The notes under the pieces: model-generated
Databases searched by the model: none
Seen by the model: only the letters and a program-made list of their open reading frames with translations
Told to the model about the DNA's origin: nothing
In this document: positions 1 to 42,026 of the stretch, one piece after another
Numbering within the stretch: position 1 is the stretch's first letter
Layout: each line of letters opens with the position of its first letter
Program-made: the position numbers and the translations under genes
Origin: a virus
Taxonomy: Duplodnaviria > Caudoviricetes
Direction: 5' to 3' (one strand)
Virus record (IMG/VR): IMGVR_UViG_3300025706_000022
Location: 11,572-75,571 of that record
Length of the DNA: 64,000 nt

Positions 1-134
1 AAAGCCATTCACTTCTTTTGCCTCTAGCTTCCCTACTGCTACTGCCATACTAAGTATAGTAGCAAGAATATCTGCTACTACTTCAGCAGGCCAGGTTTCC
101 ATTAGCTCTTTAAGTTGCTTTGGTGCTTGTAGCA

Positions 135-992
135 TCAATCTTCCTTCTCAAAGTAGTTATTTACAACAGCTTTCTTTTCATTGTAGTACTCTTCAGGAAC
201 ACTCTCCTCAATGGAAGTAAGCCAAATACCACGAGTGAGTTCAAGAATCATATCACGATTATCATTCAGTAACTGAATAGAGAACTGGTGAGTAGGGTCT
301 TTGCAGTAGTCAACACCTTCTTTCATTTTAAGCTTATGCTTGATAGTGTATGTAACTGCGCCTTGTACATCTGGAGGAACTGCTCTAGGGGAAATACCAA
401 GTTGATTTGCAATCCAAACTTTAATCTTTTCCTTACCTTGTACAAGTTCCTTATGCTGTAACTGAGCTAACTCTGCAATAGCCTGGAATTGAGTCAGCAT
501 AGGCTTCATCTCTTCCTTCATCATTTCAGCGAACCCAGTCTTAATGAACTGCGTAATATGATCAGGATTTAAAAGTGCACCTGCAGTTACATTACCATGT
601 ACATCCTTAACTGCTTCACGGCCACCAGTCATGCGGGTATGTTCGTCAACAATAACATCCAAGTAATCTGGATATTGGCGGGCTATATACTTAATAGTTA
701 AATCGTATGGTACAAGATAACAAGGATAGTATTTACCACGATCATCCTTATAACTATGTGGAATTAACACTGGCTTATCTGTAGAGATTTCAGTGGATTT
801 GGCGTCGCCGACGGCGCTCACTCCACTTTGTTTTTCTACAAGTCTATTGAGACTACGCATACAATCTGCAGGGCGCTGTCCAGTAAAATCAGCAAGCTTC
901 ACCGAATTTACATAAATACCATCTTGATATTGCACAAAAAGGTCGCTCAGTTTCTTTTGCATTGCTTCTTGATTACCGATCTTGGTATTCAT
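135..992 (-). CDS. Rha-family-like phage regulatory protein
   Basis: N-terminus VNSVKLADFTGQRPADCMRSL...YKDDRGKYYPCYLV resembles the Rha-type N-terminal DNA-binding domain; helical C-terminus. Confidence 0.6.
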   Translation of the reverse strand: MNTKIGNQEAMQKKLSDLFVQYQDGIYVNSVKLADFTGQRPADCMRSLNRLVEKQSGVSAVGDAKSTEISTDKPVLIPHSYKDDRGKYYPCYLVPYDLTIKYIARQYPDYLDVIVDEHTRMTGGREAVKDVHGNVTAGALLNPDHITQFIKTGFAEMMKEEMKPMLTQFQAIAELAQLQHKELVQGKEKIKVWIANQLGISPRAVPPDVQGAVTYTIKHKLKMKEGVDYCKDPTHQFSIQLLNDNRDMILELTRGIWLTSIEESVPEEYYNEKKAVVNNYFEKED

Positions 993-1015: not shown

Positions 1016-1402
1016 TCAGATGAAATTATCTGATTTGATACCCATGTGAGCCAAGCTAATATCTGCATCAATATGTGGTATGATAGCAGTATTCATTTCA
1101 ATAAGCTTACGTAGTTTATCCTTAAGCTTCTCTGTTTCCTTTTGTTTAATACCAATAAAATCACGTTTATTTAAATCCTCAAGTATAGCCTTATACTCCT
1201 TAGTACTGCTCTTAAGTCTAGAAGATAGCTTTTCAAGACCCTCTAATGTTTGAATCTCCTCATTGGATGAAAGATGCATATCATTAATAACCTCTTCTTT
1301 AGTCATACCATACGCATCTGCAATAGCATCTACTTTAAAGTATATCTTACCATCTATTACTCCAGTAAACTTATCTGGCATACCCACTCCTATAGAAAAC
1401 AA
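1016..1402 (-). CDS. Hypothetical protein, possibly DNA-binding, with coiled-coil C-terminus
   Basis: 128-aa ORF overlapping the RNAP stop; fits operon packing. Confidence 0.55.
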   Translation of the reverse strand: MFSIGVGMPDKFTGVIDGKIYFKVDAIADAYGMTKEEVINDMHLSSNEEIQTLEGLEKLSSRLKSSTKEYKAILEDLNKRDFIGIKQKETEKLKDKLRKLIEMNTAIIPHIDADISLAHMGIKSDNFI

Positions 1403-3534
1403 TACTCAGCCTTAGCAACTTCTAGTATGTTGAAATTACCAGTCTTTACTTCCAAATCATCAATACCCAACTGTTTAAGAAGATCACCAAGAGGGTTATT
1501 GTAATACAACATAATGAAACTACTTCTGACGTCTTCATGTAGTTGCTCCATACCACCAGCTAATGTACCAAATGAATCATGTACAGTTACTAGTGGCTCT
1601 TTACAATAATGTGCAGTAAGCATTAGATGTGTTGCATCCATACTATGCACAATATTTGGTGGTGCTCCAGTCTTTTGTTTAGAAGGACTTTCGCGTTTAT
1701 TGTTATTATCTCGAATAGATAATGACAACGTATCATCGTAGTATGGGGCCTTGACCTTAGTTAGTTCACCAATACGATAATCTTGCACTACTGGAAAATT
1801 AACTATAGGGGTATTCCATTCCAAAGATTTACCTACATTACCTTTGCGTTTACCAGCAGTTTCAAATAACTTAAGTAGTGCTACACTGGTAGGCATAGCC
1901 TGTTCCATGGTATCGTACACAATCTGGCCTAACCAAATAGCCCAAGCCCTGTCCATGCCTTCTAAATAATCAATACCATGCTTAGGAGCGTCTTCAATAA
2001 TCTGTTCACCAGCCCCGAAACGGGTTACGCCATAGACCATTGTCATAACCCCTCTCTTAACAAGCTTTCTACGCTCATTAGCTTCTTTTACTTTCTTCCA
2101 ATAAATTGGTGCAGCTTCTTTTATATGAGCTTGATACTTATGCTTAAATTCCTTTACTTCTTCATATAAATCCTTAGTCTCATCCTTATCAGCAGAGTGT
2201 ATAATACCCTTACGTAGCCTACTGACTTCTTTTATTATCTCTTCTAGCTTATCAACATTATCTACCTTCATCTCATTTATACGTTTCCATACAAACTCAG
2301 AGATATACTTATAAAGATCTTGAACAGACTTATTAGCGCAAAGATTAGTATGATAAGCAGTTTCTTCATCTCTAGTTAAAGCTGAGAGATGTTGACTTCC
2401 ATTGTTGCTTCCGTCTACATAGCATATTAACCGAGACACAAACTTCTCTACATCCTCACCGCTAGCACGCCATTGCTGAATGAGAGCTATTTCGATACAG
2501 GCAGCTAGAAATTGCCAGGGAGAATCTGCATCCATCCAACCAGTAAACTCATCTGGGTTATTAGCATAGTTTAAGAATACGCCCATATTATCGTTAGCCC
2601 ACTCTACTCTTTGCTCTAATGATAATTTGTCAGATTTAACACCATAAGTGGTCTTACCTGCCCAAGTTGATGCTAGGGCATGCTTAATCCACTTTTCACC
2701 ATGAACACCAAGCTCCTTACCCTCAGCTAGTAGTAATAGACTCTTAGCTAAGTCAGTACTTTGTTCATTTAGAAAGCCAGTAGCGGGGTAACAACGGCCT
2801 CTAAAATCGAAGAAGTATTGATGATAAAAGACCTTGCTCTGTAGCTCTATACCTAGGTTTATGATAGTCTCAGCAAGTCTTTTCTTTGACTCTCTAGCCA
2901 CAGGGTTAGAAGACTTGTAGTACTCCTTAAACACCTTAGTATTATCCTTAAAATGCTTAAGAGCTACTGATAGAATATTAGTATTGATTACCCATCCTCT
3001 ATTGAATAATTTATGCATCATTTCAATAGCCATAGGCGTACTCGCCTCAGTCAACCTAGCCTTGCTCCTCCTTATTAGCTTCTTAATTGGAATAGGGCAT
3101 GGCGTAAATGTAGGCTTGATTGCTGCTGCTCTAGGCCTTTCATCCCATAGGGATTTAATCTTAGACTCTTCTATATTTACAAAGATACCTTCATTATCTT
3201 CAATAATAACTTCGAATAAACCTACTAAAGAAAAGCACTTTAAGAAGAAACATCCAGTTTTACCTGCTGCATCTGGGAAATTCTCAAAAGAACTACCTGA
3301 CTGCTTTAAAATAGTTTCACCTACAGTAGCAACGATAACATTTACATTTGTATTATCAGCCATTAGATATGTAGCTATCATATCAAATGCTATATCTGTA
3401 AGACGACTGATGCTTACGCCACTCTCTTCATTTAAAAAATCCAGGAGAGGTGATTCAAATTGATCATTAAATGTCTGACTTTCTACTGCTGTATACAGTA
3501 TCTCCCTCTTCACAACAAATTCTCCATTTGACAA
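1390..3534 (-). CDS. Single-subunit T7-family DNA-directed RNA polymerase, compact (714 aa)
   Basis: DFRGR at aa 243-247, motif A YVDGSNNGSQHLSAL, motif B RKLVKRGVMTMVYG (RxxxKx7YG), PNIVHSMDATHL, motif C VHDSFG, C-terminal YCFL. Confidence 0.95.
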   Translation of the reverse strand: MSNGEFVVKREILYTAVESQTFNDQFESPLLDFLNEESGVSISRLTDIAFDMIATYLMADNTNVNVIVATVGETILKQSGSSFENFPDAAGKTGCFFLKCFSLVGLFEVIIEDNEGIFVNIEESKIKSLWDERPRAAAIKPTFTPCPIPIKKLIRRSKARLTEASTPMAIEMMHKLFNRGWVINTNILSVALKHFKDNTKVFKEYYKSSNPVARESKKRLAETIINLGIELQSKVFYHQYFFDFRGRCYPATGFLNEQSTDLAKSLLLLAEGKELGVHGEKWIKHALASTWAGKTTYGVKSDKLSLEQRVEWANDNMGVFLNYANNPDEFTGWMDADSPWQFLAACIEIALIQQWRASGEDVEKFVSRLICYVDGSNNGSQHLSALTRDEETAYHTNLCANKSVQDLYKYISEFVWKRINEMKVDNVDKLEEIIKEVSRLRKGIIHSADKDETKDLYEEVKEFKHKYQAHIKEAAPIYWKKVKEANERRKLVKRGVMTMVYGVTRFGAGEQIIEDAPKHGIDYLEGMDRAWAIWLGQIVYDTMEQAMPTSVALLKLFETAGKRKGNVGKSLEWNTPIVNFPVVQDYRIGELTKVKAPYYDDTLSLSIRDNNNKRESPSKQKTGAPPNIVHSMDATHLMLTAHYCKEPLVTVHDSFGTLAGGMEQLHEDVRSSFIMLYYNNPLGDLLKQLGIDDLEVKTGNFNILEVAKAEYCFL

Positions 3535-3556
3535 AAATAATATGATAAAAGTAGGA

Positions 3557-3579
3557 GGGAACGGCCCGAAGGCCGTCCC
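3557..3579 (-). terminator. GC-rich C(UUCG)G hairpin upstream of the RNAP gene (terminator or processing site)
   Basis: Minus strand GGGACGGCC-TTCG-GGCCGTTCCC followed by TCCTACTTTT. Confidence 0.6.
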
Positions 3580-3585
3580 CAGGTA

Positions 3586-3741
3586 CTAATAGAGAATACC
3601 TTGCAAGACTCCTATAAATGTGTATATTACCACAGTCATAACAGCCGTTGCAATAAAGCCTAATACTGATAGGTCTAAGATAAGCTTAAACAAGGCCCAT
3701 AAATTAACATACACTATTCGGACTATTAGTGAGAATGTCAT
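3586..3741 (-). CDS. Small hydrophobic membrane protein (51 aa, below ORF-track cutoff)
   Basis: Hand translation MTFSLIVRIVYVNLWALFKLILDLSVLGFIATAVMTVVIYTFIGVLQGILY; RBS AGAGG. Confidence 0.55.
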   Translation of the reverse strand: MTFSLIVRIVYVNLWALFKLILDLSVLGFIATAVMTVVIYTFIGVLQGILY

Positions 3742-3762
3742 AATTACCTCTAAATATAGCCA

Positions 3763-3903
3763 TTAACTCCAAGAAGTAACAGCAAGCCAATAAAGTGCTG
3801 CAAAGGCTATTTTAATTCCAGCTACTATAATAATCACGAATATTGTAGAGGGAAGCATTATTGATAATACTAATAGAATAGTCAGCTTAATTAGCTCACC
3901 CAT
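3763..3903 (-). CDS. Small hydrophobic membrane protein (46 aa)
   Basis: Hand translation MGELIKLTILLVLSIMLPSTIFVIIIVAGIKIAFAALYWLAVTSWS; RBS GGAGG. Confidence 0.55.
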   Translation of the reverse strand: MGELIKLTILLVLSIMLPSTIFVIIIVAGIKIAFAALYWLAVTSWS

Positions 3904-4150
3904 ACTATTACCTCCTTAAGCCTAATAAAATACCCACTTGGGACTATGGTTAACTTATTAGACACAATACTCATGTTATTACCTTTCTAGTGAAGCCCTA
4001 CTATTTTGTCGAATCGTATATTTGCAGTATCACGATGTTTTTTGAAACGAGCGATCAATGCTCTAATGAAGATTTCAGCCAGTATGGTTGACGTAGCTAA
4101 CTGTAGCTCAAAGGTAGTTTTGAAAAGTGATTTACCCTTCTTTTGGGCCA

Positions 4151-4672
4151 TCAATAACTCCACTGACTAAATTCTTCACTTAGAGCTACCAACTTAGACT
4201 TGATATAAGACTTAGTTGGCTGTACAACTGCAGTATTTAAAGGCTTGATCACGCCTTCATTTACTGGTACTACTACTCGATTATGCACAAGCTCCCCAAC
4301 ACTCGCTTCAGGAACCATTGCATTATTGAGCTTCTTTGTTACTTCAACATTCTGAGCAAGAAGCTGCTCATTCTGTTCTTTAAGTTCTACTACACGCTTA
4401 GAAAGCTCCTCATGCTCCTTACGAAGAACTTTCAACTCGTTTACAACAGGAGTGATAGTTACAAGCTCAATAAACTGATCCTGAGTCATGATATTATTGA
4501 GATCCAGATACTTCATGATACTCTCACTGTTGGTGATCACACCTACCAACATTGCAGCACTAACAATACAGATAGCTGCAAGTGAGACAAGAGCCAATAC
4601 TATCCCTTGAATAGCTTCAAAGAAGTAGATTGCAAAGCGAGCAACAGGATTGTACTTAACGATGGCGTTCAT
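4151..4672 (-). CDS. Membrane-anchored coiled-coil protein
   Basis: N-terminal hydrophobic segment followed by heptad-rich ELKVLRKEHEELSKRVVELKEQNEQL; RBS AGGAG. Confidence 0.65.
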   Translation of the reverse strand: MNAIVKYNPVARFAIYFFEAIQGIVLALVSLAAICIVSAAMLVGVITNSESIMKYLDLNNIMTQDQFIELVTITPVVNELKVLRKEHEELSKRVVELKEQNEQLLAQNVEVTKKLNNAMVPEASVGELVHNRVVVPVNEGVIKPLNTAVVQPTKSYIKSKLVALSEEFSQWSY

Positions 4673-4690
4673 TTGATTCTCCTAAACTAA

Positions 4691-4909
4691 TTAAAAATAG
4701 AACTTACGACGTGCTTCATACTTCAGTCTTGCAACCTTCTCCTCATAGAGTTCAGACTGATACTTCTTGAGACGTGATGCTTTGTCTTCAATGAAGATAC
4801 CAACTGTATACTTTATGGCACTACTGAGAATGTACCAGACTCTTTTAAACGGTCTAACCTTACTTACCTCATAAACTCTTGTTGCTTCCCCTTCTATTAC
4901 ATCTCTCAT
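4691..4909 (-). CDS. Hypothetical protein
   Basis: 72-aa ORF with ATGA overlap to neighbour. Confidence 0.55.
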   Translation of the reverse strand: MRDVIEGEATRVYEVSKVRPFKRVWYILSSAIKYTVGIFIEDKASRLKKYQSELYEEKVARLKYEARRKFYF

Positions 4910-5109
4910 TTAGACTTACTCCGATTAGTAGTAGGCCTAGCTGGGGCAAATGATTCAATAACCTTGTTACCGTAACGGTCATGAACTTGATATCCACCAT
5001 TAGAGCTGTGGTAGATCTTAGCGCTATCCATTGGAGTTACTGGCCCTTTGTAACCCTCATAAGCACAACCAGAGGTGATAAGAGTTAACACTATAAGTAA
5101 AAATTTCAT
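4906..5109 (-). CDS. Small putative lipoprotein
   Basis: MKFLLIVLTLITSGC lipobox-like signal. Confidence 0.6.
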   Translation of the reverse strand: MKFLLIVLTLITSGCAYEGYKGPVTPMDSAKIYHSSNGGYQVHDRYGNKVIESFAPARPTTNRSKSK

Positions 5110-5492
5110 TGCATCTGCTCCATAAGTTTTTCAACAGAGTTCACATAATTCATCATAGTTTGATAACCCTTTTCAGAGTCTGCACTAGTAGCACATTCCT
5201 TGTTAAACCCTGAAACCAGCTTATCACGGTTCTTGTACTTCTTAAATGCATTCACTACACCAATTGAGTACTTGCTCATAAAAGTCATAGCAGTTCTTTG
5301 CGGTATAGTAAGGGCTACATACTTCTTTTCAAAGGATAATTCGGCAGCTTCCATTGAGTTACCGCTTTTATCTATATCGTTGTAAGTTTCAATCAGGCCA
5401 CCAGTGATTTCACAGAAATTAGCCTTTGAAATACCAGCAAAAGCATTGAAAGAAACAAGAGCAGCAATGATCATAATCATCTTCTTAAACAT
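5106..5492 (-). CDS. Putative secreted/periplasmic protein
   Basis: Sec-type signal MFKKMIMIIAALVSFNAFA; two Cys; RBS AGGAG. Confidence 0.65.
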   Translation of the reverse strand: MFKKMIMIIAALVSFNAFAGISKANFCEITGGLIETYNDIDKSGNSMEAAELSFEKKYVALTIPQRTAMTFMSKYSIGVVNAFKKYKNRDKLVSGFNKECATSADSEKGYQTMMNYVNSVEKLMEQMQ

Positions 5493-5566
5493 GGTAATAC
5501 TCCTAAGTTAAATTGACATAGACACTCTCCCGAGTGTTTCGCTCATTTAGAGCTCTTCAGTATGTC

Positions 5567-5785
5567 TTACTTTCCTTCCACATAGTATGGCCACACAATG
5601 GGTACAGACTGATGCCCATTAAGCAAACACACAATGTGAATATTGTTTCGCTCTTTTTCAGGATACTTGCTAAGAGCATTATCAACTACGCGGCTCATAT
5701 CACCATGGTAAGTGGTATGGAACAAGTCATACTCCTGAGTCTCAGGGTTATAACAAACTGCAGTTACCTTTTTGCTCGTGTTCAT
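5567..5785 (-). CDS. Hypothetical protein
   Basis: 72-aa ORF with RBS AAGGAG. Confidence 0.55.
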   Translation of the reverse strand: MNTSKKVTAVCYNPETQEYDLFHTTYHGDMSRVVDNALSKYPEKERNNIHIVCLLNGHQSVPIVWPYYVEGK

Positions 5786-5968
5786 TTACATCTCCTTGAT
5801 TGAAAGCCACTTGATCATAATACTATCTTCATAAAGTGTAACCCTAAACTCGCCAGGAAAGCAGAACTTGTACTGCATAAGCACTCCCATATCATGGCTA
5901 CTCAGGGTTACACCACCCTTTTTCAACAACTCCTTAACTTCTTCTTCAGACATTTTAAGCCCTTTAAA

Positions 5969-6178
5969 TTAAAATCCTTCAGGATGAATTTGTAAGAATT
6001 GCAGCATTTTCTTACGGTATCTTGGAATTACTTGCGGATAATACTTTTGAATATATTCATGAAGCTGAACAATATCCATAGTACGCTTACGATGTGCCTG
6101 TAAAGCAGCAAGTGCAGACGGTGGTATCTCTTTCTTTTTAGGTGCTTCTGGGAAAAGATCTTCTACTAAATTAGACAT
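5969..6178 (-). CDS. Hypothetical protein
   Basis: 69-aa ORF with RBS AAGGAG directly downstream of the tRNA. Confidence 0.55.
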   Translation of the reverse strand: MSNLVEDLFPEAPKKKEIPPSALAALQAHRKRTMDIVQLHEYIQKYYPQVIPRYRKKMLQFLQIHPEGF

Positions 6179-6192
6179 TTATTTCTCCTTAA

Positions 6193-6277
6193 TGGTGCCC
6201 GTAGTGGGGATCGAACCCACATGACTTTCGTCGCTGCGTTTTAAGCACAGTGCCTATACCAATTCGGCTATACGGGC
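6193..6277 (-). tRNA. tRNA-Leu, anticodon UAA
   Basis: GCCCGTA/TACGGGC acceptor stem, anticodon arm CTGTG-CTTAAAA-CGCAG, long variable arm, GGTTCGATC T-loop, encoded CCA; 85 nt. Confidence 0.95.
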
Positions 6278-6283
6278 ATTAGC

Positions 6284-6517
6284 CTACTTCAAATCAGGGT
6301 ACAGCTCGTATATCTCATCATTAATCATCGGCTGGCCATATCCATCTTGAAGGATAAAATCGCCAGTCCTTTGGTCTATTCGAATCTGAATATACTTTAC
6401 AGTAATTCCTACTTTCATCCAATTAGTGGGCGACCTTTTAATTGCATTACTAACTGCAGTAGTAGCCCTTACTAGCTCTTCTGCATAAAACCACCCATTA
6501 AGTTTATCTTGTTTCAC
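6284..6517 (-). CDS. Hypothetical protein
   Basis: 77-aa ORF, coupled to neighbour. Confidence 0.5.
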   Translation of the reverse strand: MKQDKLNGWFYAEELVRATTAVSNAIKRSPTNWMKVGITVKYIQIRIDQRTGDFILQDGYGQPMINDEIYELYPDLK

Positions 6518-6747
6518 TTGATTCCTTCCACTTGTTCAATTTCAACTAGTTTAAAAATCCGATACAGAGAATTAGGGTTAAGCCCACTAAACTCTGCTAC
6601 GAACTGATTCGCTTCTTCCTGGCTAAACAACGAAGGCCATGAGCCCCTATTGCTACAAAGTTCACCCTGAGGGTAATCTTCATCGAATACCAGAATTGCG
6701 AGATCCTTCTCTAATGCTTTACCAAAAGACATACAAATAACCTCCAA
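6514..6747 (-). CDS. Hypothetical protein
   Basis: 77-aa ORF, coupled to neighbour. Confidence 0.5.
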   Translation of the reverse strand: MEVICMSFGKALEKDLAILVFDEDYPQGELCSNRGSWPSLFSQEEANQFVAEFSGLNPNSLYRIFKLVEIEQVEGIK

Positions 6748-7023
6748 AAATTAATGCTACCATTAGTGATGCGCAGAAAATATCCATTCCGAGACTAGAT
6801 TTCATTCTATGCCTCTAACTACTTTGAATCACGAATATTACTGAACAGGTAGATAGCCAGACTGATCACAGAAATCATGAAACCAGTCTTACCAGATTCA
6901 GCCACAACACCTTCATAAACTTCTTGATAAGTAACACGCATGGTATTTCTCCTAAGTAAAATTAAACTACATGAAATTCAACCATTGAAGCTACTCTTTC
7001 GAATAGCTCCTAGTTTGAATCTA

Positions 7024-7503
7024 TTACAAGTACTTGCCCATCAACTGCTTACCAGCATTCAAAGCCTTGTTACCAGCAGCAGTTGCAGCGTCCAATGTAG
7101 CTTGTGCAGCCTTCTTAGTCTCTTCCAGAATCTGGGAGTCAACATAAGTGGTACAGGCAAGCTGGATCGGTTCTTGACCCTTGAAGCGATCTGCAAGATA
7201 CAGATGCGAGACTATCACAGAGCCAGCGCCAAGAGCAGCGCCAGAGATAGTATCAGCAACAAGAATCGTTGCAACAGTACCAGCGGCCATTGGAGGTGCA
7301 ACAATAGCGATAGTAATACCGGATGCAACTAGCATTACACCACCACCGTATGCAGCACCTGCACCAATCGACTTCCATACTGCACTTGCTTCACACTGGT
7401 TTATTCGCTGAGCACGAGTCTGCTCAGCAGCCTTAACTTGTGTGGACAACAGTGCCAAAGCGATAACAGCAACAATAGCAACAATCAAAGATTTCTTAAG
7501 CAT
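7024..7503 (-). CDS. Signal-peptide, glycine-zipper-like membrane protein
   Basis: Signal MLKKSLIVAIVAVIALALLSTQVKA, then GAGAAYGGG...GAALGAG hydrophobic hairpin. Confidence 0.65.
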   Translation of the reverse strand: MLKKSLIVAIVAVIALALLSTQVKAAEQTRAQRINQCEASAVWKSIGAGAAYGGGVMLVASGITIAIVAPPMAAGTVATILVADTISGAALGAGSVIVSHLYLADRFKGQEPIQLACTTYVDSQILEETKKAAQATLDAATAAGNKALNAGKQLMGKYL

Positions 7504-7547
7504 GGTAATACTCCTATTTAAATTAAACTACAGTAAGTGATACCTCT

Positions 7548-7569
7548 TTCGATATCATATAAGATGGAT
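7548..7569 (-). promoter_or_regulatory. Candidate phage RNAP promoter, class A (copy 1)
   Basis: ATCCATCTTATATGATATCGAA, intergenic; near-identical copies at 8130-8151 and 10239-10260. Confidence 0.6.
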
Positions 7570-7593
7570 AGAAACCCAAAGTTAAAAACCAAG

Positions 7594-8112
7594 TTATTTT
7601 GGATCAGGAACGTGAGTGTAAGATTTATTGTTACGAATGCTCCACATCGTTTTTCTAGATTGACCATAAGACTTTGCTAAGATTGTGTCTGACATATTTG
7701 GTAATTTCATTAGCTGCTTAATTTCAAACACTTGTTCATCAGTAAGTTTACAAAGCCAATTTGGGTACACTCGTTTACTGTCATCCCTTAATCCTGTTGA
7801 AATTGCATGCTGTTGTTGATGTGACCAAGAAGCCCACTCAAGATTAGTAAGGGTGTTATTAGCCTTATTACCATCAATATGATTAACTGAGGATAATTTA
7901 TCGGGGTTAGGTATGAATGTTTCAGCAACCATTCTGTGTACATGAATTGTAATTGCTTTTCCACGAAGCTGCCCCCAAAGTCTAACTAGTCTATACCCAT
8001 CCTTATTGGGTGCAGGGTTTAATTGAAATCCGGTGTTTATATTTTTAACATTACCAAACGTAGAGATTGCATAGTGTGTACTTCTAAACTGCTTCCATAT
8101 TTCTTCAATCAT
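7594..8112 (-). CDS. Free-standing NUMOD4-HNH homing endonuclease
   Basis: EEIWKQF...YAISTFGNVKN (NUMOD4), VHRMVAETFIPNP...VNHIDGNKANNTLTNLEW (HNH), C-terminal KLTDEQVFEIK HTH-like segment. Confidence 0.9.
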   Translation of the reverse strand: MIEEIWKQFRSTHYAISTFGNVKNINTGFQLNPAPNKDGYRLVRLWGQLRGKAITIHVHRMVAETFIPNPDKLSSVNHIDGNKANNTLTNLEWASWSHQQQHAISTGLRDDSKRVYPNWLCKLTDEQVFEIKQLMKLPNMSDTILAKSYGQSRKTMWSIRNNKSYTHVPDPK

Positions 8113-8129
8113 AATTTCTCCTTGGATAT

Positions 8130-8151
8130 TTGTATATCAATTAAGATGGAG
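8130..8151 (-). promoter_or_regulatory. Candidate phage RNAP promoter, class A (copy 2)
   Basis: CTCCATCTTAATTGATATACAA, intergenic, about 20 nt upstream of the HNH start. Confidence 0.5.
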
Positions 8152-8163
8152 AAGACGGCGCAG

Positions 8164-8370
8164 TTATTTTCTCTGCTTTTTAGGCTCTTGTGACCCTTCA
8201 TAAAACTTCTTGAGTGTAGATGCAACCGTGAAGTATCCATTAAGATTGCAATTACCATTCTTAAGGTTACCATCTATGTTGCATTGAAATATTGTTTTCT
8301 TATCCTTTGCAGGTAAGATTGTGATACGGCTATATTTGCAGATGTTGCATTTATAGAGTGGGAGGGTCAT
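8164..8370 (-). CDS. Small Cys-containing (possible Zn-binding) protein
   Basis: CNIC ... C ... C pattern. Confidence 0.45.
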   Translation of the reverse strand: MTLPLYKCNICKYSRITILPAKDKKTIFQCNIDGNLKNGNCNLNGYFTVASTLKKFYEGSQEPKKQRK

Positions 8371-8632
8371 TACTAGTAGCCCCTTCTAATTTTTCTTTAT
8401 TAATCTTATTTCTAAGCCTATACCTACATAGGCTAGAGCAACATTTTTGTTTCTGTCTAACTCGTTCAAATACCTTACCACAAAAGCCACATGGCATTTG
8501 TTTTTCAATACGTGCTTGTTGCTTAAGTAACTCCCTATGTTTTCTGAGCTCCTCTTTCTGTTCTGCAATGGATGATGAGGTAAGCTCGCTCTTACGCTCA
8601 ACTGATGTCACCATTTTCTTGATCTTAGCCAT
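8351..8632 (-). CDS. Small Zn-finger-like protein
   Basis: CGFCGKVF...QKCCSSLCR motif; RBS AGGAG. Confidence 0.6.
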   Translation of the reverse strand: MAKIKKMVTSVERKSELTSSSIAEQKEELRKHRELLKQQARIEKQMPCGFCGKVFERVRQKQKCCSSLCRYRLRNKINKEKLEGATSNDPPTL

Positions 8633-8971
8633 TTATATTCTCCTATCTTAATAGGGGTTCGTCCACTTCTCGCAGGTCTCCCGACGTCCGCTTTGCCGAT
8701 ACCCCTATGATGCCAACCCCGAAAAGCGGACTACGGAGCAGGACGGGGCAAACATCCGGTTTTTCCAAAGTAGCTAGAATTGGACGTCCATGATTAATTC
8801 TTACGAATCAAGGGCTTATCGCTACGTTGCCCCCGACCCAGGTCTGACTGCTTCGACACAAAAGCGGACTAATATCATATATTACTATATAGGCTGTCCA
8901 TTTAATAATTGCTGGATTTTGGATTAATAGCCCCAAGTATTTCTACTTAGGGCCACCAATCACACTAACTA

Positions 8972-9532
8972 TTAACCACCGTAATGGCTAACCTCAGGAC
9001 GCGGCACATCAACAACACCGCCTAGACCAGTATTAGGGCTAACCTTAACACGGCAAGGACGGCCAACTGCAGCGTAAGCTTCTGCTACAATAGGGGAGCC
9101 ACACATAATTTCCTTAGCTACATCTTTCTCACCAATAGCTACAATCTCGCGTGCATGGAGACGACGAATACATTCTTCGTCCTTCCAAGTGCTACCAATA
9201 CTAAGGCCAAAGCCAGCACCAGCACCACCAACAGTGGAGGAGCCCATACAGGTTTCAGTAAGAGTAGTCGTCAATGCAGGAGCATACACTGTCGGTACAT
9301 TCTTAACAGTAGTAGTACCACTTGCACGAGTGCTAACTTCAGCAGGAGAGTTAAAAGTGTTAGTTAAGGTAACACCTTCATTCGAGCCAGTAGAAGCAAC
9401 AGCACCAGATGCAGACTGAGCCTGACTAGCACTACCACTCACTGCCTGACTCTCTTGGGCATGAGTAGGCGTAACAACACCCATCATAAGAGCAGCTGCA
9501 CTGATTACAACAATAGACAGAATATGCTTCAT
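8972..9532 (-). CDS. Secreted Ser/Ala/Gly-rich protein with a Cys-containing C-terminal domain
   Basis: Signal peptide ending THA; TCMGSS...GFGLSIGSTWKDEECIRRLHAR...EIMC. Confidence 0.75.
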   Translation of the reverse strand: MKHILSIVVISAAALMMGVVTPTHAQESQAVSGSASQAQSASGAVASTGSNEGVTLTNTFNSPAEVSTRASGTTTVKNVPTVYAPALTTTLTETCMGSSTVGGAGAGFGLSIGSTWKDEECIRRLHAREIVAIGEKDVAKEIMCGSPIVAEAYAAVGRPCRVKVSPNTGLGGVVDVPRPEVSHYGG

Positions 9533-9535
9533 TTA

Positions 9536-9676
9536 TTACTCCTTAGGCTCGGGAAAGAGATCAAGCACCTTACCAATAGCGTCTTTCAAATTCTGAAGAG
9601 CTTCCTTGAAAGTCAGATCAGATGGCGGTGGTTGATGATCATCAGCAACAACACCAGTTTGTCCAGTATCACCCAT
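9536..9676 (-). CDS. Small acidic protein (46 aa, below cutoff)
   Basis: Hand translation MGDTGQTGVVADDHQPPPSDLTFKEALQNLKDAIGKVLDLFPEPKE; RBS AAGGAG. Confidence 0.55.
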   Translation of the reverse strand: MGDTGQTGVVADDHQPPPSDLTFKEALQNLKDAIGKVLDLFPEPKE

Positions 9677-9737
9677 ATACTTCTCCTTTTAGGAGGCCCA
9701 GGATAGAATTATTCCAGGCCTATTACTACTTAACTAA

Positions 9738-10136
9738 TTAGAACGGATTAACAACAGGCAGCGGGGCCGGATTGACACCGATGGTCGTGAAGTTACCAGT
9801 GGCACCACTAGTGTTACCAGCTTGAGCACCGTACAGGGAACCAGCACCAGCCAGACCAAGAGCACCACTCACCGAGTAACCCTGATTGGCAGCCTGACCA
9901 CCTTGACCAACAACAACGCCATTCGGTCCAACAGCACCACCAGCAGCACCAGACTGTTGAGCCTGAGCACCAGAGGTCGTACCGGCAATACCAGCAATAG
10001 CGGCAACCGAGCCACCACCAGTAGCAACACTAGTAGCACCAAGGGAACCAGCCTGAACCAAGCCAGCATACAGGTTGAAGGCGTTAGCAGCAGAAGCGGC
10101 AAACATAGCAACAGCAATAACGAACAGCTTTTTCAT
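9738..10136 (-). CDS. Secreted, charge-free Gly/Ala/Ser/Gln-rich protein
   Basis: Signal MKKLFVIAVAMFAASAANA; the 113-aa mature part has no D, E, K, R or H; codon choice resembles the capsid gene. Confidence 0.75.
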   Translation of the reverse strand: MKKLFVIAVAMFAASAANAFNLYAGLVQAGSLGATSVATGGGSVAAIAGIAGTTSGAQAQQSGAAGGAVGPNGVVVGQGGQAANQGYSVSGALGLAGAGSLYGAQAGNTSGATGNFTTIGVNPAPLPVVNPF

Positions 10137-10238
10137 GATAAATCTCCTAGAAGGAAAATTGATAACAACGTTGTTGCCTGTGCAACATATTAGTAGGTAC
10201 AGGCTTCCCCACTAAAACAAACACTTTTGATATAATAC

Positions 10239-10260
10239 TTCTATATCATATAAGATGGAT
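10239..10260 (-). promoter_or_regulatory. Candidate phage RNAP promoter, class A (copy 3)
   Basis: ATCCATCTTATATGATATAGAA(G); its 3' end TATAGAAG matches the SP6 promoter initiation end. Confidence 0.6.
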
Positions 10261-21413: not shown

Positions 21414-21437
21414 ATCTATATTCCTATATAGTAGGAG

Positions 21438-21459
21438 AGAAGGGGCCGAAGCCCCTTCT
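21438..21459 (-). terminator. C(UUCG)G hairpin after the tape measure gene
   Basis: AGAAGGGGC-TTCG-GCCCCTTCT followed by CTCCTACT. Confidence 0.6.
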
Positions 21460-21461
21460 TA

Positions 21462-33481: not shown

Positions 33482-33790
33482 TTAGCCTATTCCATAGAAG
33501 CCTTTATCATGCTTCCAAAAATCAGGCGGTATATCTTCTAGAATATCCTCAGCTTTGAGAATATCCTGTTCAGTCATAAGTCTTCCACCAACTTTACTTT
33601 TTCCAGCTATTGGAATAATACCTTTTTCAATGGCCTCTTCCAAATACTGATCATAAAGCTCTTTAGGTAATCCACGCTCACGCAGAAGATCTAATGTAGC
33701 CTTTACTGTATTTTTCGTAACAGCATCAGCATACATTTTTCTAATAGCCGTCTTAGCCTTAATCATATCACCAGCATTAGTGAAGAAAGC
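33482..33790 (-). CDS. Exon 3 of MuF-RNAP fusion
   Basis: Begins AFFTNAGDM after intron-terminal G at 33791; completes motif C (IHD|AFF). Confidence 0.85.
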   Translation of the reverse strand, partial: AFFTNAGDMIKAKTAIRKMYADAVTKNTVKATLDLLRERGLPKELYDQYLEEAIEKGIIPIAGKSKVGGRLMTEQDILKAEDILEDIPPDFWKHDKGFYGIG

Positions 33791-34729
33791 CGAAATATTC
33801 AACAAAGGTCGTTAGTCTTTGCCCGTTACTGTCGAGTTAGTTAATAATTCTTCCAAGTATTACCAATTCGTATTTGACGAATGGTAGAAGGGTGCGATCC
33901 AAATTCTACAGCTATTTCTGCATCTAACTTTCCATTTTTGATACATTCTCGTATATAAGGTACATCCTCTGCAGTTATCTTTCTAGTCCTAGGTGCACCA
34001 TTATAACGACCAGGGATAGTCAGACCTAGATGCTTCCAGTTGTCACCAATCCTAATAGCGTTTATAGATTGCCTAGTAACACCGTATTCATCTGCAATCT
34101 CTTGATCTTTTTTGCCAGCAAGCATTAATTTAATTATAGTAGGTATTTCTGACTCTACTAATACCGACTCAACCCTATGTGAACCGCGTGGCATTAACCC
34201 AGTATCGTATGCGTGCTGAACATTTTCACTGCGAGTTGCCCATTCTAGATTAATTACATGGTTATGTAACCTATTCCCATCAATATGATTTACATCTGAT
34301 TTAGAAAAGGGATTTGGTATAAAAGCCTTTGCAACCAACCTATGTAGCTTTTCTGTGCGTCTAACACCATTGTATGATATATGAAACTGCCTATAACCAC
34401 CTACGATATTACCTAATGTGATGCACCCATTAGAGCCACAATATAGTCTACCATGGTTACTAATAGAATAGTTTGCATCACCAACTTGTTTCCATTCTTC
34501 TTGCATGTTTACTCCTTGTGCTCGACAGCACTGCTGCATATTACTATGCAGACTAGACTATATCTTCAAAGTAAATACATGTATTTACGATGTCCCCCGT
34601 TTCCACTCACTTGAGTGTACTGGCGCAATGCCATAGTCGTTACACCTTCCTTATTTCTAAGGATTGGCTCGGTATTGTCCTAACGAAGGAGTTTCACCGA
34701 ATTAGAGGGATTTAACCACAACAAAATTT
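33791..34729 (-). mobile_element. Group I intron 2 (IA2-like, 939 nt) inserted in RNAP motif C
   Basis: P1 CCACGAU/GUUGUGG with U-G at the splice site; P AAUUCGGUGAAA; R AACGACUAU; S AAGAUAUAGUC; P7.1/P7.2 hairpins; terminal G; HNH ORF in the P9 region. Confidence 0.9.
33841..34506 (-). CDS. Intron-encoded NUMOD4-HNH endonuclease (intron 2)
   Basis: KLHRLVAKAFIPNP...VNHIDGNRLHNHVINLEW; two C-terminal HTH-like repeats; start MQEEW with RBS AAGGAG. Confidence 0.9.
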   Translation of the reverse strand: MQEEWKQVGDANYSISNHGRLYCGSNGCITLGNIVGGYRQFHISYNGVRRTEKLHRLVAKAFIPNPFSKSDVNHIDGNRLHNHVINLEWATRSENVQHAYDTGLMPRGSHRVESVLVESEIPTIIKLMLAGKKDQEIADEYGVTRQSINAIRIGDNWKHLGLTIPGRYNGAPRTRKITAEDVPYIRECIKNGKLDAEIAVEFGSHPSTIRQIRIGNTWKNY

Positions 34730-35833
34730 ATCGTGGATACTAGTTGTTTCTATACCATTACGCTTACCCCATAAAGCAAAGTTCTTAACTAGAGTAGCAT
34801 CGTTAGAGTGATTGCCATTGACGGCATATGCCGTTCTAGCAGACACTGCATCAGCTACTTCATTTATTTTATTACTCTTATTAACTAACTCTTCAAACCA
34901 AGTGGGATCAGTTTTATTATCTACTTGAATAATATTAGTGATCCAGTTACCATCAGCATCCTTATAATTAAGCCTTTCCTCAAATCGTTGGGTATAATAT
35001 TGCTCCAACACACTACCATCAAGGTTCACCCAAGGCACATGTGTCCAACTCTTAGGTTGCTTATTGGGTAACCCCAACTCAGCTATATCAATATCTTTGT
35101 AAACATCACCCACCTGAAGCTTAATATCAAACTTCTTACCAGTAGGTCTATAGCCCTTGTCCTTAACCCCAAATAGTATATCAGAGATGGTACTATCGGG
35201 TTTATATCCAGGTATACGTTTAAGGATTTGTTCTCGATAAGATACCTTTGGATCTATTCCTAGTATCCAAGCTAGCACAGGATGAGGCTTAGCCCCTTCT
35301 TTATACTCACCAAATGCGGTTTTCTTCATAAGGCTTACCCAATCAAACTCAGCTTTAGAAGGCTTTGCTGTTAACAGAAAGTCTTGTGCCAGCCTACCGA
35401 AGAACTTAGTAAAATCATTCAAAATAGGTACACGATTAGACATATGCTCAGACATGATTGCACCTATCTGAGCAAAATCTTTGGGCGTAACTACTTCATC
35501 ATAATCCCTAGTAAGCTTCTCTACAAAATCCTTTGTTTTAGGATCAAGGAACCATAAGTCAGACATCAAGTCATCACCTGGCCTAGTTCCACTATCAAAT
35601 ATGTCTTTGACCTGTTTACGAAGCTGCATTAGTTCGTCTGCAGTATCTTGATCCCAACGTGCTATTTTAGCAGCACGGGCAGAGATTTCACCCAATACAG
35701 CATCGCGTTCCTCAGCTTTAATTACTAAGACACCATCATCTTTACCTAAAGCCTTAGCTAATTTCTTTTCTACATTCATGGTAGCAGTTCTCTGTCCGGC
35801 GCCGTATAGAGAGACCATGTTATGCGCTTTTGA
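34730..35833 (-). CDS. Exon 2 of MuF-RNAP fusion
   Basis: Starts SKAHNMVSLYGAG, ends NGNHSNDATLV...SIHD. Confidence 0.88.
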
Positions 35834-36790
35834 CAATGTGTTAACAAGGGGTCGTTAGTCCCCTGTCATAATTTATTAGTAGTTCTTCCAGGTATTTCCT
35901 CTACGAATTTGGTTTATGGTTGCAGTTGCTACACCAAACATAGGTGCAATATCGCAATCACGTAATGTGCCAAATAAGCTTCGAATAACCGGTATATCTT
36001 CTCCAGTTAACTTCTTAACTGGGCCATTACCTATAATCGGCTGTCTTTCAATAAATCGCCAAGTACGGTTACATCGAATATCATCAATTGTATTTGGGGC
36101 CACGTTATACTTTTTGGCAAGAGTAATATTTCTATCACCAGCCTTTAAGGCATCAATAATTTCATGAACTTCTGTTTCTAGAAGGATATGCATATAGCTA
36201 CCTTCTCCAGAAGCAATTAACCCTAATTTTACAGCATGCTCATTATTCTCTGTAGGAGTACACCACTCTAGGTTACTAGACTTATTATTAAGCTTATTAC
36301 CATCAATGTGGTTAGCCCAGGGCTTACCATCTACCCTAGGTATAAAGGCCCTAATAACCAATTTATGAACATCGATAGTTATCCTATCCTTACGAGAGGT
36401 AAACTGTATACTAACTTGTAAGTATCCTCTAGCAGTAATGAAGGGATTAAGAATGAAATCAGTGCTATTGTTGCGAATACGCCCCAGATTGCTGACACTA
36501 TACATGCCTTCTGTGTCTGGGATAATACGAAATTCTTCTGTCATAATGACTCCATGGGTGTGTAAATTATGCTGCATATTACTATGCAGATCAGACTATA
36601 TCTTCAACAAACAATGTTTGCTGTCCCGCGTTTCCACTAGACTTCTAGTGTATGAGATTCATAATCCGTTCTGGACCGTATTCTCTAGTCGTTGAACCTT
36701 CCAAAGAGTCCCCTCTAAGGCTTGGCTGCTGATTGTCCTTTAACGAAGGAGTTTCCAGCAATTAACGGGATTTTACAAGGCCACAAGTTT
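35834..36790 (-). mobile_element. Group I intron 1 (IA2-like, 957 nt) inserted in RNAP motif B
   Basis: P1 AAGGCU/GGCCUU; P AAUUGCUGGAAA; Q AAUCAGCAG; R UUCAACGACUA; S AAGAUAUAGUC; P3 UCCCGU/GCGGGA; terminal G at 35834. Confidence 0.92.
35876..36544 (-). CDS. Intron-encoded NUMOD4-HNH endonuclease (intron 1)
   Basis: DVHKLVIRAFIP...ANHIDGNKLNNKSSNLEW; two C-terminal HTH-like repeats; start MTEEF with RBS GGAG. Confidence 0.9.
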   Translation of the reverse strand: MTEEFRIIPDTEGMYSVSNLGRIRNNSTDFILNPFITARGYLQVSIQFTSRKDRITIDVHKLVIRAFIPRVDGKPWANHIDGNKLNNKSSNLEWCTPTENNEHAVKLGLIASGEGSYMHILLETEVHEIIDALKAGDRNITLAKKYNVAPNTIDDIRCNRTWRFIERQPIIGNGPVKKLTGEDIPVIRSLFGTLRDCDIAPMFGVATATINQIRRGNTWKNY

Positions 36791-39700
36791 AGCCTTCCTT
36801 AAATCCTTCTCGCTTAGCCCCAATCTTTCATTAAGCTTTTTAAACCTAGGATCATTAAAGGTCATAGAAGCAATCTCGTCATAGAGACGCCGCTTCTGGT
36901 TAGTAGGAACAACATTACTAAGTTCTGCTAATTGCTTATTCTTAGTAGACAATGCAATAATCTGAGCACCAGAAGATGAAGCATCTTGCTCTAGAGCTAC
37001 TTTAATCATATAATTATCAAGTGGAGTAAGATCTTTGTAACTGCCACCTAAAAATTTATCAATGCGGTATTGTTCAAGGGCAAGCCTAAATAACTTTCCC
37101 TGTTCTTCAGCATCCGCCATCTGAACGATCTTAGATTCAAGGATATCACGAATATCCTGAGGCTTTTGTCTTTCTATACGTTTACCTAATAAAACAAGAT
37201 CAGCACGCCATTTATCTGCAATCTTCTGCCTACCAGTTTGAGAGAGACCATTAAAGCGTCCTTCAAACTCATCACTTAGGCCACCTAAGAAACCACCTAT
37301 CTGGTCTTGTAGGTTATAATATCCATCAATACCTAAGGGTTTAGCTTCTGGTGTATTTAAGAAAGGACGAAAGGACTCACCAGATTGTGGTCCAATGTAG
37401 CCGCTATCATATATGCGACCGCGATGATCAATGAAAGCGTGATTACTAAAAGACATATCGTTCTTAACATAATGTTCCATAGCCTTAAATCTATCGTATG
37501 CATCACCACGAGCAGTCATGTGATCACGATAATGATTCAAATCATTAAAATACTTAGCCTTACCCTTATCGTCTTGGAAATCCAATAACTTTCTCGTAAA
37601 CCCATAAAACTCAGGATCTACTTTATACTTACTATTGCTATACCAATTAAGGGCATCTGCTAATGGTTCGTCAATTAGCTCTGCAGGTATTTCAGTGAAA
37701 CTACTTGAAGATGTAATTGGTATTTGTGTATCATATCCGCCCTTAGCAAAATATGTTTTGAACCCAGGTTTAATATATAGTTGGTTATCATATCTATTAT
37801 TCACACCAATACGATAGCCTACATCGATAGCACGATTAAGGTATGAGTAGTGCTTAATACGAGCATCGGTAATCCTAAGATTTACACTAAATGTATCGTA
37901 GTATTGACCAAAGTATTGACCACTCATACGACTACGCATACGCCTTTTCTTAACACCAAAAGTATCTAGTGTATAAAATCCTACTTTTTGAGCATAATCT
38001 AAGATTTCTACACCTGCATCATACCATTCTTTTTTAGATCCACGAAAATTAGTAGTATTAAATAGATCTCTTCCTAATTCAATGGCTAGTTGATCCCTAT
38101 CAGGGGCATCATCCATTGCTAACCGTTTAGCAAACCTCAAATAGAACTGCTGAGTTTCAAACTTACCTAATCCCTGAAATACTCTACGCATTTGAAGTTT
38201 CATAGGTAATTGTGTTTTTAAGAAGATATCTACTGTAGAACGTAACTGTAGTGCTATAACGGGTAATTGTCTAGCTTCCCATAGATTACGCTCTTTAATA
38301 TTAGCAATAAAATTCTTGCCCAAATCATCTAATTGTATAGGGCCAAGAACAGGATCAAGATACTCACCTTGCTTAATCTTGTAGAAGAAGTCAGAATTAT
38401 TTCTTAACTGTGTCTCAATAAACTCTGACACGTTAGTAACACTATTCTTCATTTCTGAGTTAAGAACAGCCTTAAGATTACCCCAAGGCTTTCCTTGTTT
38501 ACGAAAACGCTCAAATGTTACACGAAGATTATCAGTGACAACTGCAGCCTCATTCATGCCTACAGACTTCTGTATTTCTATCTTGAAATCTTGTAGGAAC
38601 TTCTTATCATCTGCGGTTAATACTGTGCTTTCATCAATAAGCCTAACAGCGCGTTTATCAGCAGCCATATTAGGTTGATAGATGCGGGCATCCTCTCTAC
38701 GCTTAGTAATAGGATTATATATTAGCTGATCTTCAGTTGGAGGGCTGTTTAGAACCCTATTCTTAGTACCAGCCTTTACATGAGGTAGAATACCACGATA
38801 GTTAGTAACACTTAAAGTACCATTTAGCTCACCAGACTGTAGTTTATAATACTCTACGAGTTTGCTAACGGCCTCTTTATCTCTAAGTATTTCAAGAGGG
38901 GATGTATATCCCAGTGTAAGTGTGTCCAGTCTTTCTTTTGCATTCGCGAATACTTTACTAGTAGCTTCTACGCTACCGTTATAACCACCTGCTGTATTAT
39001 TATCACCAGTTAGTAGCTTAAGCTCATTGAGACCTACACTAGCACCCTTAGGTGTTATAAACCTCTCAGCTGTAAGCTCATTATTTTGGAACATCTTAAG
39101 GCGATGCATATCTCCTAGATGCATTAGCTGAATTCTATCTGGTTGTTTCTTTAACCAATCATTATAAGAAATAGTGTCATAAGGTGTTCCAGTAAAATAA
39201 CTAGAGGCATACTTATCATAGGCTTCAATCTCTGCTTCCGACATTCCAGCTGTATTACGGGCTCTAGTGGCTCTTACAGAATCAACTTTTGCTAAGTCTG
39301 CCCAAGCCTTAGGAACAGGTATTGTAGTAGACCTACACCTATAATGTTGTGGTGGTAAATGACCAGTATCAGAAACTGGATAGATATTTCCATCCATATA
39401 TCTGCATACTGGAGTAGTTCTAGTGTCTAATACCGCGGCGTATTGGTATCCTTTCAAGTATTTGCTATTCTCTGCATATACTTGCTGGTCTACTTGTGCA
39501 TACACACTAGTAATCCCGGTAATAACAATACCTTCACTATGTACACGAGTAAGATTAAACGTTTTAGATACACGTTTAATCATTTGTTCTTCAGTTAAGC
39601 CTTCAGCTAGGCCGCCTCTAATAGCAGCCTCTATACGCTTACGCTCATTTAAGCCAATGCCTTTCCAACCTTCTGCAAGAGTCTTATTAGCATAGAGAGG

Positions 39701-40063
39701 TTGTGTTAATACTATCTCGCTAGCAATAGCACGAGTAGGTCTCTCAGGCTCAAAGAAATCTCTGAATGACTTATTGAGAGTATCTAAAGAACTTACTTGT
39801 GCTTGATTACCAAACTCAATAAAACTTTTTGCATTATGGCGATACGCTGTTTCTGTAAATCGCCTTATCTCTGCATCTGTTGCAGGGCTGATCGGCATTT
39901 CTTTTGAATAGTTTCCAGGGAGTATTGCGAGCATTCTAGTTTCATGGTCATCAACTAATGCTAATGTTTGTGCGGTAACTCGCTCTGTATAAAGTCGAGT
40001 CATAGCAGCATCATGTATGGTTTTATCACCAGCAACCTCGACCGCTGTCTTTTCTACTTTCAT
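36791..40063 (-). CDS. Exon 1 of MuF (SPP1 gp7-like) minor head protein fused to a T7-family RNA polymerase
   Basis: MuF core YQYAAVLDTRTTPVCRYMDG...PPQHYRCRST and WLKKQP...LG extension; then DHRGRIY, motif A LEQDASSSGAQII, and RKA start of motif B. Confidence 0.9.
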
Positions 40064-41982: not shown

Positions 41983-42009
41983 CGATTTTTACTCCGTAAA
42001 ATTCTGTGT
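41976..42009. repeat. 34-nt leader repeat (second copy at 45421-45454)
   Basis: 32/34 identical; contains TTTTAC-GGA-GTAAAA hairpin over the RBS and the ATG. Confidence 0.85.
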
Positions 42010-42026
42010 GAACATACAATATCCTG

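Follow-up and report, generated by a model that had tools for sequence, protein, structure and literature searches.

A compact T7-type RNA polymerase and a MuF-fused polymerase are paired in a wastewater siphovirus and may form a transcription relay

What does a compact T7-type RNA polymerase (RNAP) do in a long-tailed phage that encodes a second polymerase of its own? The question is raised by IMG/VR virus record IMGVR_UViG_3300025706_000022, a 75,571-bp genome rated 100% complete, of which we analysed bases 11572-75571 (the window, 64,000 nt; coordinates are window positions unless preceded by the handle of another sequence). Every gene lies on the minus strand, and the genome is of siphovirus type, with terminase, portal, MuF protein, scaffold, major head protein, a 2219-amino-acid (aa) tape measure and a J-like tip protein, together with a replication module of primase-helicase, gp2.5-like single-stranded DNA-binding protein (SSB) and DNA polymerase A. 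Its source is a long-tailed phage from wastewater, and near-identical DNA is contained in anaerobic-digester and activated-sludge metagenomes. The compact enzyme, RNAP2, is encoded by the minus-strand open reading frame (ORF) 1390..3534, and the other, RNAP1, is fused to a MuF minor-head domain. A relay of two polymerases is familiar from phage N4, in which the virion RNAP gp50 is followed by RNAPII (gp15 and gp16), working with the cofactors gp1 and gp2. The reading that we favour, and regard as somewhat probable, is that RNAP2 is an active, free-standing ~80-kDa T7-type polymerase and the non-virion member of a two-polymerase relay with a virion-delivered RNAP1.

RNAP2 is a T7-family single-subunit polymerase by its matches to PF00940 (1.7e-76, 258 bits against a cut-off of 22) and to the T7-type family phrog_414 (1.2e-112), by profile alignment to T7 RNAP and by its predicted structure. 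Counted from the first TTG (3534), the ORF has 714 aa. The real start is probably the GTG at 3513, giving a product of 707 aa and 80.5 kDa (1390..3513, minus strand), because a Shine-Dalgarno sequence GGAGA (3521..3525, minus strand), read directly from the sequence, stands 7 nt ahead of it and because ten close homologs (699-724 aa) start at the same aligned position, with M-H-R-E-I-L-Y. A preliminary description of this DNA had recognized a separate 714-aa enzyme with its motifs intact and had placed DFRGR at residue 243, compared with 421 for DWRGR in T7 RNAP; both readings were reproduced here. In the 707-aa numbering, in which all motif residues of RNAP2 are given, DFRGR occupies 236-240. 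Motif A (YVDGSNNGSQH) contributes D367, equivalent to T7 D537; motif B (RRKLVKRGVMTMVYG) contributes R482, K486 and Y494, equivalent to T7 R627, K631 and Y639; and motif C (VHDSFGT) contributes D646, equivalent to T7 D812. VHSMDATH corresponds to T7 VHSQDGSH, and the C-terminal YCFL to T7 FAFA. All catalytic motifs are intact and invariant among 52 homologs. The protein search returned 274 RNAP2 clusters, mostly of 700-760 aa and on 60-80-kb contigs, and homologs occupy 327 IMG/VR loci and 527 loci in metagenome contigs, the latter found with an alignment as query, a single-protein query having given no match. With these clusters, the IMG/VR loci and 70+ invariant columns in the family, RNAP2 appears to be under purifying selection.

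We looked for an upstream start or exon that would restore a full N-terminal domain, and none is possible: a TAG at 3586-3588 closes the frame upstream, and after it comes a GC-rich hairpin (3557..3580, minus strand; 10 pairs, 8 of them GC) that has a UUCG loop and ends in a T-rich tail. An N-terminal extension by readthrough from the in-frame 51-aa ORF 3586-3741 was considered and rejected, because this ORF, which encodes a hydrophobic peptide and ends in TAG with a strong hairpin after it, is kept as a separate ORF in the relatives L093 and L100, and because the N-termini of the homologs lie at GTG 3513. The hairpin at 3557-3580 separates a block of small genes from RNAP2 and may be a terminator, an attenuator or a processing site. 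GC-rich hairpins followed by CCTAC(T) stand at module boundaries here, at 21432-21460 (minus strand) and at two sites in the related locus L173, and may likewise be terminators or processing sites.

The AlphaFold2 model of RNAP2 is confident (predicted local distance difference test, pLDDT, 92.6; predicted template modelling score 0.88) and of T7 type. It superposes on T7 RNAP 75..883, and a global profile alignment with hhalign places RNAP2 1-707 on T7 80-883 (E 4e-86). In structure comparisons with VIA, the model matched T7 RNAP 3e2e_A with Z 37.1 (root-mean-square deviation 3.9 over 623 aligned residues) and elongation complexes with Z up to 42.8 (8dh5_M); mitochondrial RNAPs were matched too (Z 36-39), the superposition starting near residue 436 of POLRMT. 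The preliminary description held that roughly 180 aa of the N-terminal promoter-binding region were missing. The size of this deficit is right (~176 aa relative to T7 RNAP, all lost before residue 206), but it was not removed as a block: the missing parts correspond to T7 1-79, most of T7 157-225, part of T7 246-310 and ~30 residues of the thumb. In the model, a beta-hairpin at 101-112 corresponds to the intercalating hairpin of T7 and a second, long one at 581-607 to the T7 specificity loop, whereas the residues that align with the AT-rich recognition loop of T7 include no basic ones. Since hairpin and loop are both kept, the model describes RNAP2 as compact, with a trimmed N-terminal domain, and not as stripped of its promoter-binding domain. 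The predicted fold is the right-hand one, complete with an N-terminal domain, the intercalating hairpin and the specificity loop, and RNAP2 may be a promoter-specific RNA polymerase. With T7, the other Autographiviridae and Xp10 it shares the fold (Z 37-43), the catalytic motifs, the intercalating hairpin, the specificity loop, the C-terminal foot and a gene position ahead of the replication genes.

RNAP2 by itself is ordinary, a further member of a known and already annotated group, because similar enzymes of 700-760 aa are annotated in DSS3_VP1, Kolga and Xp10. The polymerase of the Naomviridae roseophages DSS3_VP1 and DSS3_PM1 (QGH74624.1) has 732 aa and is 37% identical to RNAP2, and that of the Pelagibacter siphophages Kolga and Aegir has 762 aa and is 30% identical. 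Xp10, a lambda-like siphovirus, has a T7-type polymerase of 746 aa, so that a compact T7-type RNAP in a siphovirus was already known (PMC4496689). In a quick maximum-likelihood tree, RNAP2 and the Kolga and DSS3_VP1 enzymes form one clade (Shimodaira-Hasegawa-like approximate likelihood ratio test, 97), which stands beside a clade of T7, SP6, other Autographiviridae and Xp10. Within it, RNAP2 of this phage stands apart from the DSS3_VP1 and Kolga enzymes in a subclade whose specificity loop is shorter; the nearest relative, L093, has a polymerase 61% identical to it. In some homologs, a group I intron close to motif B interrupts the gene (L100:4044-4232, L011:1923-2111, L163:1876-2106), so that 'split' database entries of ~500 aa reflect such genes and not heterodimers.

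The likeness to N4 RNAPII drawn in the preliminary description holds for size, the N4 enzyme being minimal, with 673 aa and with both its N-terminus and its thumb truncated (PMC4496689). It does not extend to ancestry or subunit structure: N4 RNAPII is a heterodimer and falls, on a long branch, outside the grouping of RNAP2 and Autographiviridae in the quick tree, whereas RNAP2 is a single 707-aa chain that is not phylogenetically close to it, and the RNAP2 model matches N4 gp16 with Z 21 compared with Z 37-43 for T7.

When RNAP2 was compared with the window by tblastn, it found only itself; the second polymerase, RNAP1, became visible by profiles alone. Its sequence barely resembles those of solved polymerases. 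The ORF 36773..40063 starts with a MuF domain (PF04233, 3e-13; phrog_241, 1e-55), after which come FIDHRGR, equivalent to DxxGR, and EQDASSSGAQ, equivalent to motif A. The rest of the polymerase continues in the same frame beyond two inserts, each with an HNH endonuclease, and Rfam identifies both inserts as group I introns (1e-24 and 2e-21). Alignment to an uninterrupted homolog puts the exon junctions between DLRKA and KAHNMVSLYGAG in motif B and between SIHD and AFFTN in motif C. RNAP1 therefore occupies 33482..40063 (minus strand) in three exons (~36791-40063, 34730-35833 and 33482-33790), and the spliced product has ~1561 aa. It forms a deep clade of its own in the quick tree, apart from RNAP2; its placement relative to N4 vRNAP was set aside as a long-branch join. 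RNAP1 and RNAP2 are not recent paralogs, and their distinct lineages point to two promoter specificities.

How regularly the two enzymes occur together was assessed in twenty IMG/VR records >60 kb with an RNAP2 homolog, which were searched for the polymerase part of RNAP1. A homolog was found in 18 of the 18 records that are at least 90% complete, mostly as an uninterrupted frame of 1528-1581 aa. DSS3_VP1 also has both polymerases, the RNAP1-type enzyme being a 1463-aa coding sequence annotated only as 'minor head protein-like protein'. RNAP1 is the better conserved of the two: in the same genomes, its exon-1 polymerase part is 58-62% identical, compared with 30-38% for RNAP2. The two-polymerase arrangement is therefore real at the gene level and strongly co-conserved, and this pairing, common to hundreds of uncultured phages and to cultured Naomviridae, suggests a phage-polymerase relay. 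The gene fusion to the MuF minor head protein would place RNAP1 in the virion, where it is probably carried inside the capsid, to be ejected together with the phage DNA. The N4-like cascade of the preliminary description is upheld in that there are two RNAPs, one of them MuF-fused, and given up in that RNAP2 is not an enzyme of the N4 RNAPII kind. Our literature searches turned up neither a MuF-polymerase fusion nor a siphovirus with two T7-type polymerases, and the description of Naomviridae and a later paper on enzymes of deoxyuridine DNA do not mention an RNA polymerase.

One promoter-like motif (class A) stands out in this genome, a 20-mer with three intergenic copies on the coding strand compared with 0.01 expected by chance. 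Copy 1, with the core ATCTTATATGATA, lies at 7548..7569, a variant copy at 8130..8151 and copy 3 at 10239..10260, all on the minus strand, and together they head the small-gene block that ends at RNAP2. The consensus is tGCGGaAAA-N5-GT-ATCTTATATGATA, with the upstream tGCGGaAAA box conserved and without a hairpin. The 13-nt core recurs in 16 of 19 complete relatives, with 1-4 copies in each; in related loci, 79 distinct class A sites are on the coding strand compared with 5 on the reverse strand, typically 1.3-3 kb upstream of RNAP2. In this phage, the class A core is unchanged and the specificity-loop region of RNAP1 is 58-63% identical to that of relatives, whereas the specificity loop of RNAP2 is 25-31% identical and differs by a 12-aa indel. 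As far as these alignments indicate, class A conservation tracks RNAP1 better than RNAP2.

A second conserved coding-strand motif, class C, was found in the relatives. It consists of CCCGTTAAATTAACCC plus a hairpin, aaCCCGTTAAATTAACCC being followed by a short stem whose arms co-vary, and has 5-7 copies per genome (G001-G019) at fixed places, for example G017:C1:11183, 33573, 40135, 54264 and 62719. Copies follow directly on the RNAP1 gene, lie beyond RNAP2 and its neighbour, and precede class A sites by 70-120 nt or ~1 kb. Neither this genome nor the rest of its RNAP2 subclade has any class C copy. Class C may be a promoter or a terminator. The simplest reading of the two distributions would assign class A to RNAP1 (or the host enzyme) and class C to the RNAP2 of the majority clade. 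For the present genome, a search of intergenic 11-mers with one mismatch recovered only the ribosome-binding site TAGGAGTAATA, and genome-wide exact 10-mers gave nothing convincing as an RNAP2 promoter. The sole candidate for such a promoter is the 20-mer GTGGAGCATAAAAGGNCACG, present in two copies (48345-48364 and 50662-50681, minus strand). Longer conserved flanks surround these copies, which lie in two large non-coding gaps and may be a promoter, an origin or an RNA element; the 410-nt AT-rich gap 47983-48392 also has three CACTTAGCnnTATAAG repeats.

Several of these observations weigh against a relay. No RNAP2 promoter class was found in this genome, and in the relatives class C may be a terminator instead of a promoter, because a hairpin follows it and it often stands 70-120 nt before class A. 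Kolga and Xp10, which were searched, have no RNAP1, so that RNAP2-type enzymes need no MuF-fused virion partner in principle. Class A itself could also pass for a weak bacterial promoter of bipartite form (TTGCGG, 16 nt, TATGAT), and the host RNA polymerase could for that reason start the programme. The last two points also lend themselves to a T7- or Xp10-style programme, in which the host RNAP would transcribe the early small genes and RNAP2 from class A, RNAP2 alone would run middle and late transcription, and the MuF-fused polymerase would have another role, such as DNA entry, replication priming or the transcription of a few pre-early genes elsewhere. Xp10 and T7 do use the host RNAP first (PMC4496689), and neither has a second phage polymerase as this phage does. 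We nevertheless consider this programme unlikely, though by no means negligible. The upstream box of class A is GC-rich and, in this phage's copies (TAGCTG, TTTGGG), unlike a -35 element; the spacer is as well conserved as the boxes among phages of varied habitats, which is unusual for sigma-70 promoters; and the region has no excess of sigma-70-like sites, 33 having been found compared with 31 expected. Furthermore, the strict co-occurrence in all 18 near-complete records suggests that the two polymerases work as a set.

The position of RNAP2 raises a different possibility for its function. Its gene is followed by that of a conserved 143-aa protein and then by those of the gp2.5-like SSB and DNA polymerase A, an order that echoes the one downstream of T7 gene 1. 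As RNAP2 immediately precedes this cluster of SSB, DNA polymerase and primase-helicase, and as its best PDB sequence matches are mitochondrial RNAPs (E 1e-49), it might serve chiefly in replication or priming, in the way that T7 and mitochondrial RNAPs make primers or origin transcripts, or be specialised for middle genes, with RNAP1 made de novo carrying out most transcription. However, the genome encodes its own primase-helicase (53405-55180; phrog_239, 5e-130), nothing links RNAP2 to an origin, and the full specificity loop and intercalating hairpin are typical of promoter-specific transcription. We judge a primer role to be very improbable.

Does RNAP2 act with a cofactor, as N4 RNAPII does? 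The preliminary description had proposed the two small neighbouring ORFs, 1016..1402 and 135..992 (both minus strand), as cofactor candidates. The first, of 128 aa and with weak winged-helix hits, overlaps the RNAP2 stop; the second, of 285 aa, has weak Rha/Ant-like hits. This proposal is not supported: the two genes form a lineage-specific insertion with no counterparts beside RNAP2 in ~160 related loci. The conserved gene that they interrupt is the one for the 143-aa protein, which starts at 135, runs off the left edge of the window (1..135, minus strand) and is complete at G000:C1:11275-11706 (minus strand; isoelectric point 4.66). In L093, the gene overlapping the polymerase stop begins MFSIRSNMLYAPKQMKQL; ORF 1016-1402 shares its first four codons, MFSI, and then diverges, while MLQAPKQLKEL... 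starts the 143-aa gene at 135. Since MFSI is kept at the 1402 end and the remainder resumes at 135, the two ORFs represent a 1.25-kb insertion in the first codons of the conserved gene. The hidden Markov model of the partner family recognizes this gene with E 2e-28.

In 118 of 142 loci, a member of the partner family is found no more than 3 kb downstream of RNAP2, and in 91 of the 142 it is directly adjacent (-9 to +17 nt). The acidic 143-aa protein is predicted to fold confidently (AlphaFold2 pLDDT 91), yet it belongs to no Pfam or PHROG family, a search of the Atlas returned no usable match, Foldseek gave none at E <= 0.001, and the best VIA-wide match had Z 3.5. It is a better candidate for a polymerase-associated factor than the two inserted ORFs, whether as cofactor, regulator or inhibitor of the host polymerase. 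Its conserved adjacency, its confident fold and the lack of T7's basic residues in the AT-rich-loop region of RNAP2 would be consistent with an enzyme that needs this protein as N4 RNAPII needs gp2. We think such a dependence rather improbable. The family is absent from DSS3_VP1 and Kolga, and in this phage an insertion of two genes separates it from RNAP2. A small acidic protein might just as well inhibit the host RNAP, mimic DNA or act as a T7-lysozyme-like regulator, and the 143-aa protein has no homology to N4 gp1 or gp2, for which a homolog search here gave no match below E 1. Complex prediction of RNAP2 with the 143-aa protein (scores 0.00 and 0.00) is evidence neither way.

Taken together, the gene, its catalytic and promoter-contact architecture, the co-conservation of the polymerases, and the class A motif with its placement are directly supported, and a relay of RNAP1 and RNAP2 is the account of them that we favour. 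We infer virion delivery, the assignment of motifs to polymerases and the temporal order as follows. Capsid-delivered RNAP1 would read a few deeply conserved class A promoters, which would drive transcription of the small-gene block into RNAP2, past the hairpin that may attenuate or process the transcript. The RNAP2 so made would have its own promoters, from which it would transcribe the DNA-replication module, at whose head its gene stands, and probably later genes. A wider version of this proposal would make a large siphovirus clade of global distribution, including the cultured Naomviridae, independent of the host in its transcription from the first minute, with the MuF-fused RNAP reading 2-4 class A promoters, one of the operons so transcribed yielding RNAP2, and RNAP2 reading a second class that co-evolves with its specificity loop, and the 143-aa protein of new fold serving as a factor or regulator; this we offer only tentatively, as a possibility that we doubt more than we trust.

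The arrangement differs from the virion-plus-second-polymerase relays known in N4, phiKZ-like phages and P23-45. Like this phage, N4 has two T7-family polymerases, one large and virion-linked and one minimal, of ~80 kDa and with a trimmed N-terminus and thumb (PMC4496689), the virion link here being suggested by the gene fusion. Unlike it, N4 carries a virion enzyme that is a 3500-aa podovirus protein instead of a MuF fusion on a siphovirus, and it has gp1 and gp2, whose homologs were not found here; the lack of a hairpin in class A is a further difference. The Thermus siphovirus P23-45 offers another parallel: a virion RNAP fused to the tape measure transcribes the gene of a second, free, non-virion RNAP (PMC10770324). 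The P23-45 enzymes, however, are two-barrel polymerases (cellular or crAss-type) with the tape measure as carrier, whereas here both are of T7 type and the carrier is MuF. Among the phages with RNAP2-like enzymes, DSS3_VP1, DSS3_PM1 and Kolga have polymerases of similar compact size in the same clade, and DSS3_VP1 shares the MuF-fused polymerase as well; DSS3_VP1 and Kolga differ from this phage in having no 143-aa downstream gene, and Kolga also in having no MuF-fused RNAP.

On its own, RNAP2 is one more small T7-type polymerase, which may serve as a compact 80-kDa enzyme for in vitro transcription with a new promoter. Its context weighs more: two T7-type polymerases on a long-tailed virion, a pair that hundreds of environmental genomes share with cultured roseophages, which allow a direct test. 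The motif classes and the conserved downstream protein provide reagents for studying how promoter specificity splits between two related enzymes.

The surroundings of the locus contain further features. Immediately upstream of RNAP2 is a block of small ORFs (3586..5492, minus strand), mostly for membrane proteins or proteins with no known function, whose order is shared by the nearest relatives, L093 and L100. A transfer RNA (tRNA) gene lies farther up in the small-gene block (6196-6277, minus strand), and further tRNA-like sequences occur in the first 1.5 kb of the genome. Beyond the two HNH endonucleases in the RNAP1 introns there are three free-standing HNH genes, at 7594-8112, L173:8255-8938 and L173:2840-3331 (all minus strand), one of which sits between class A copies within the small-gene block. 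A gene of the dCMP/dCTP-deaminase family is present outside the window (G000:C1:435-749), and this phage has no YfbR-type HD hydrolase like the dTMP phosphatase of DSS3_VP1.

Contigs at least 99% identical over ~3600-10140 are present in three activated-sludge metatranscriptome libraries; being contigs only, they are not proof of transcription. Two of the three RNA libraries have no contig on 1-3598. We rejected these data as a sign of expression level or of termination at the hairpin, as they are contigs and not reads and a DNA run also has a hole at 3200-4000. One activated-sludge DNA run has a variant that skips the 127 nt of 10064-10190, just downstream of the 10.25-kb class A copy. In the packaging region, a 40-nt repeat of 90% identity (41976-42015 and 45421-45460) spans the ribosome-binding site and start of two genes.

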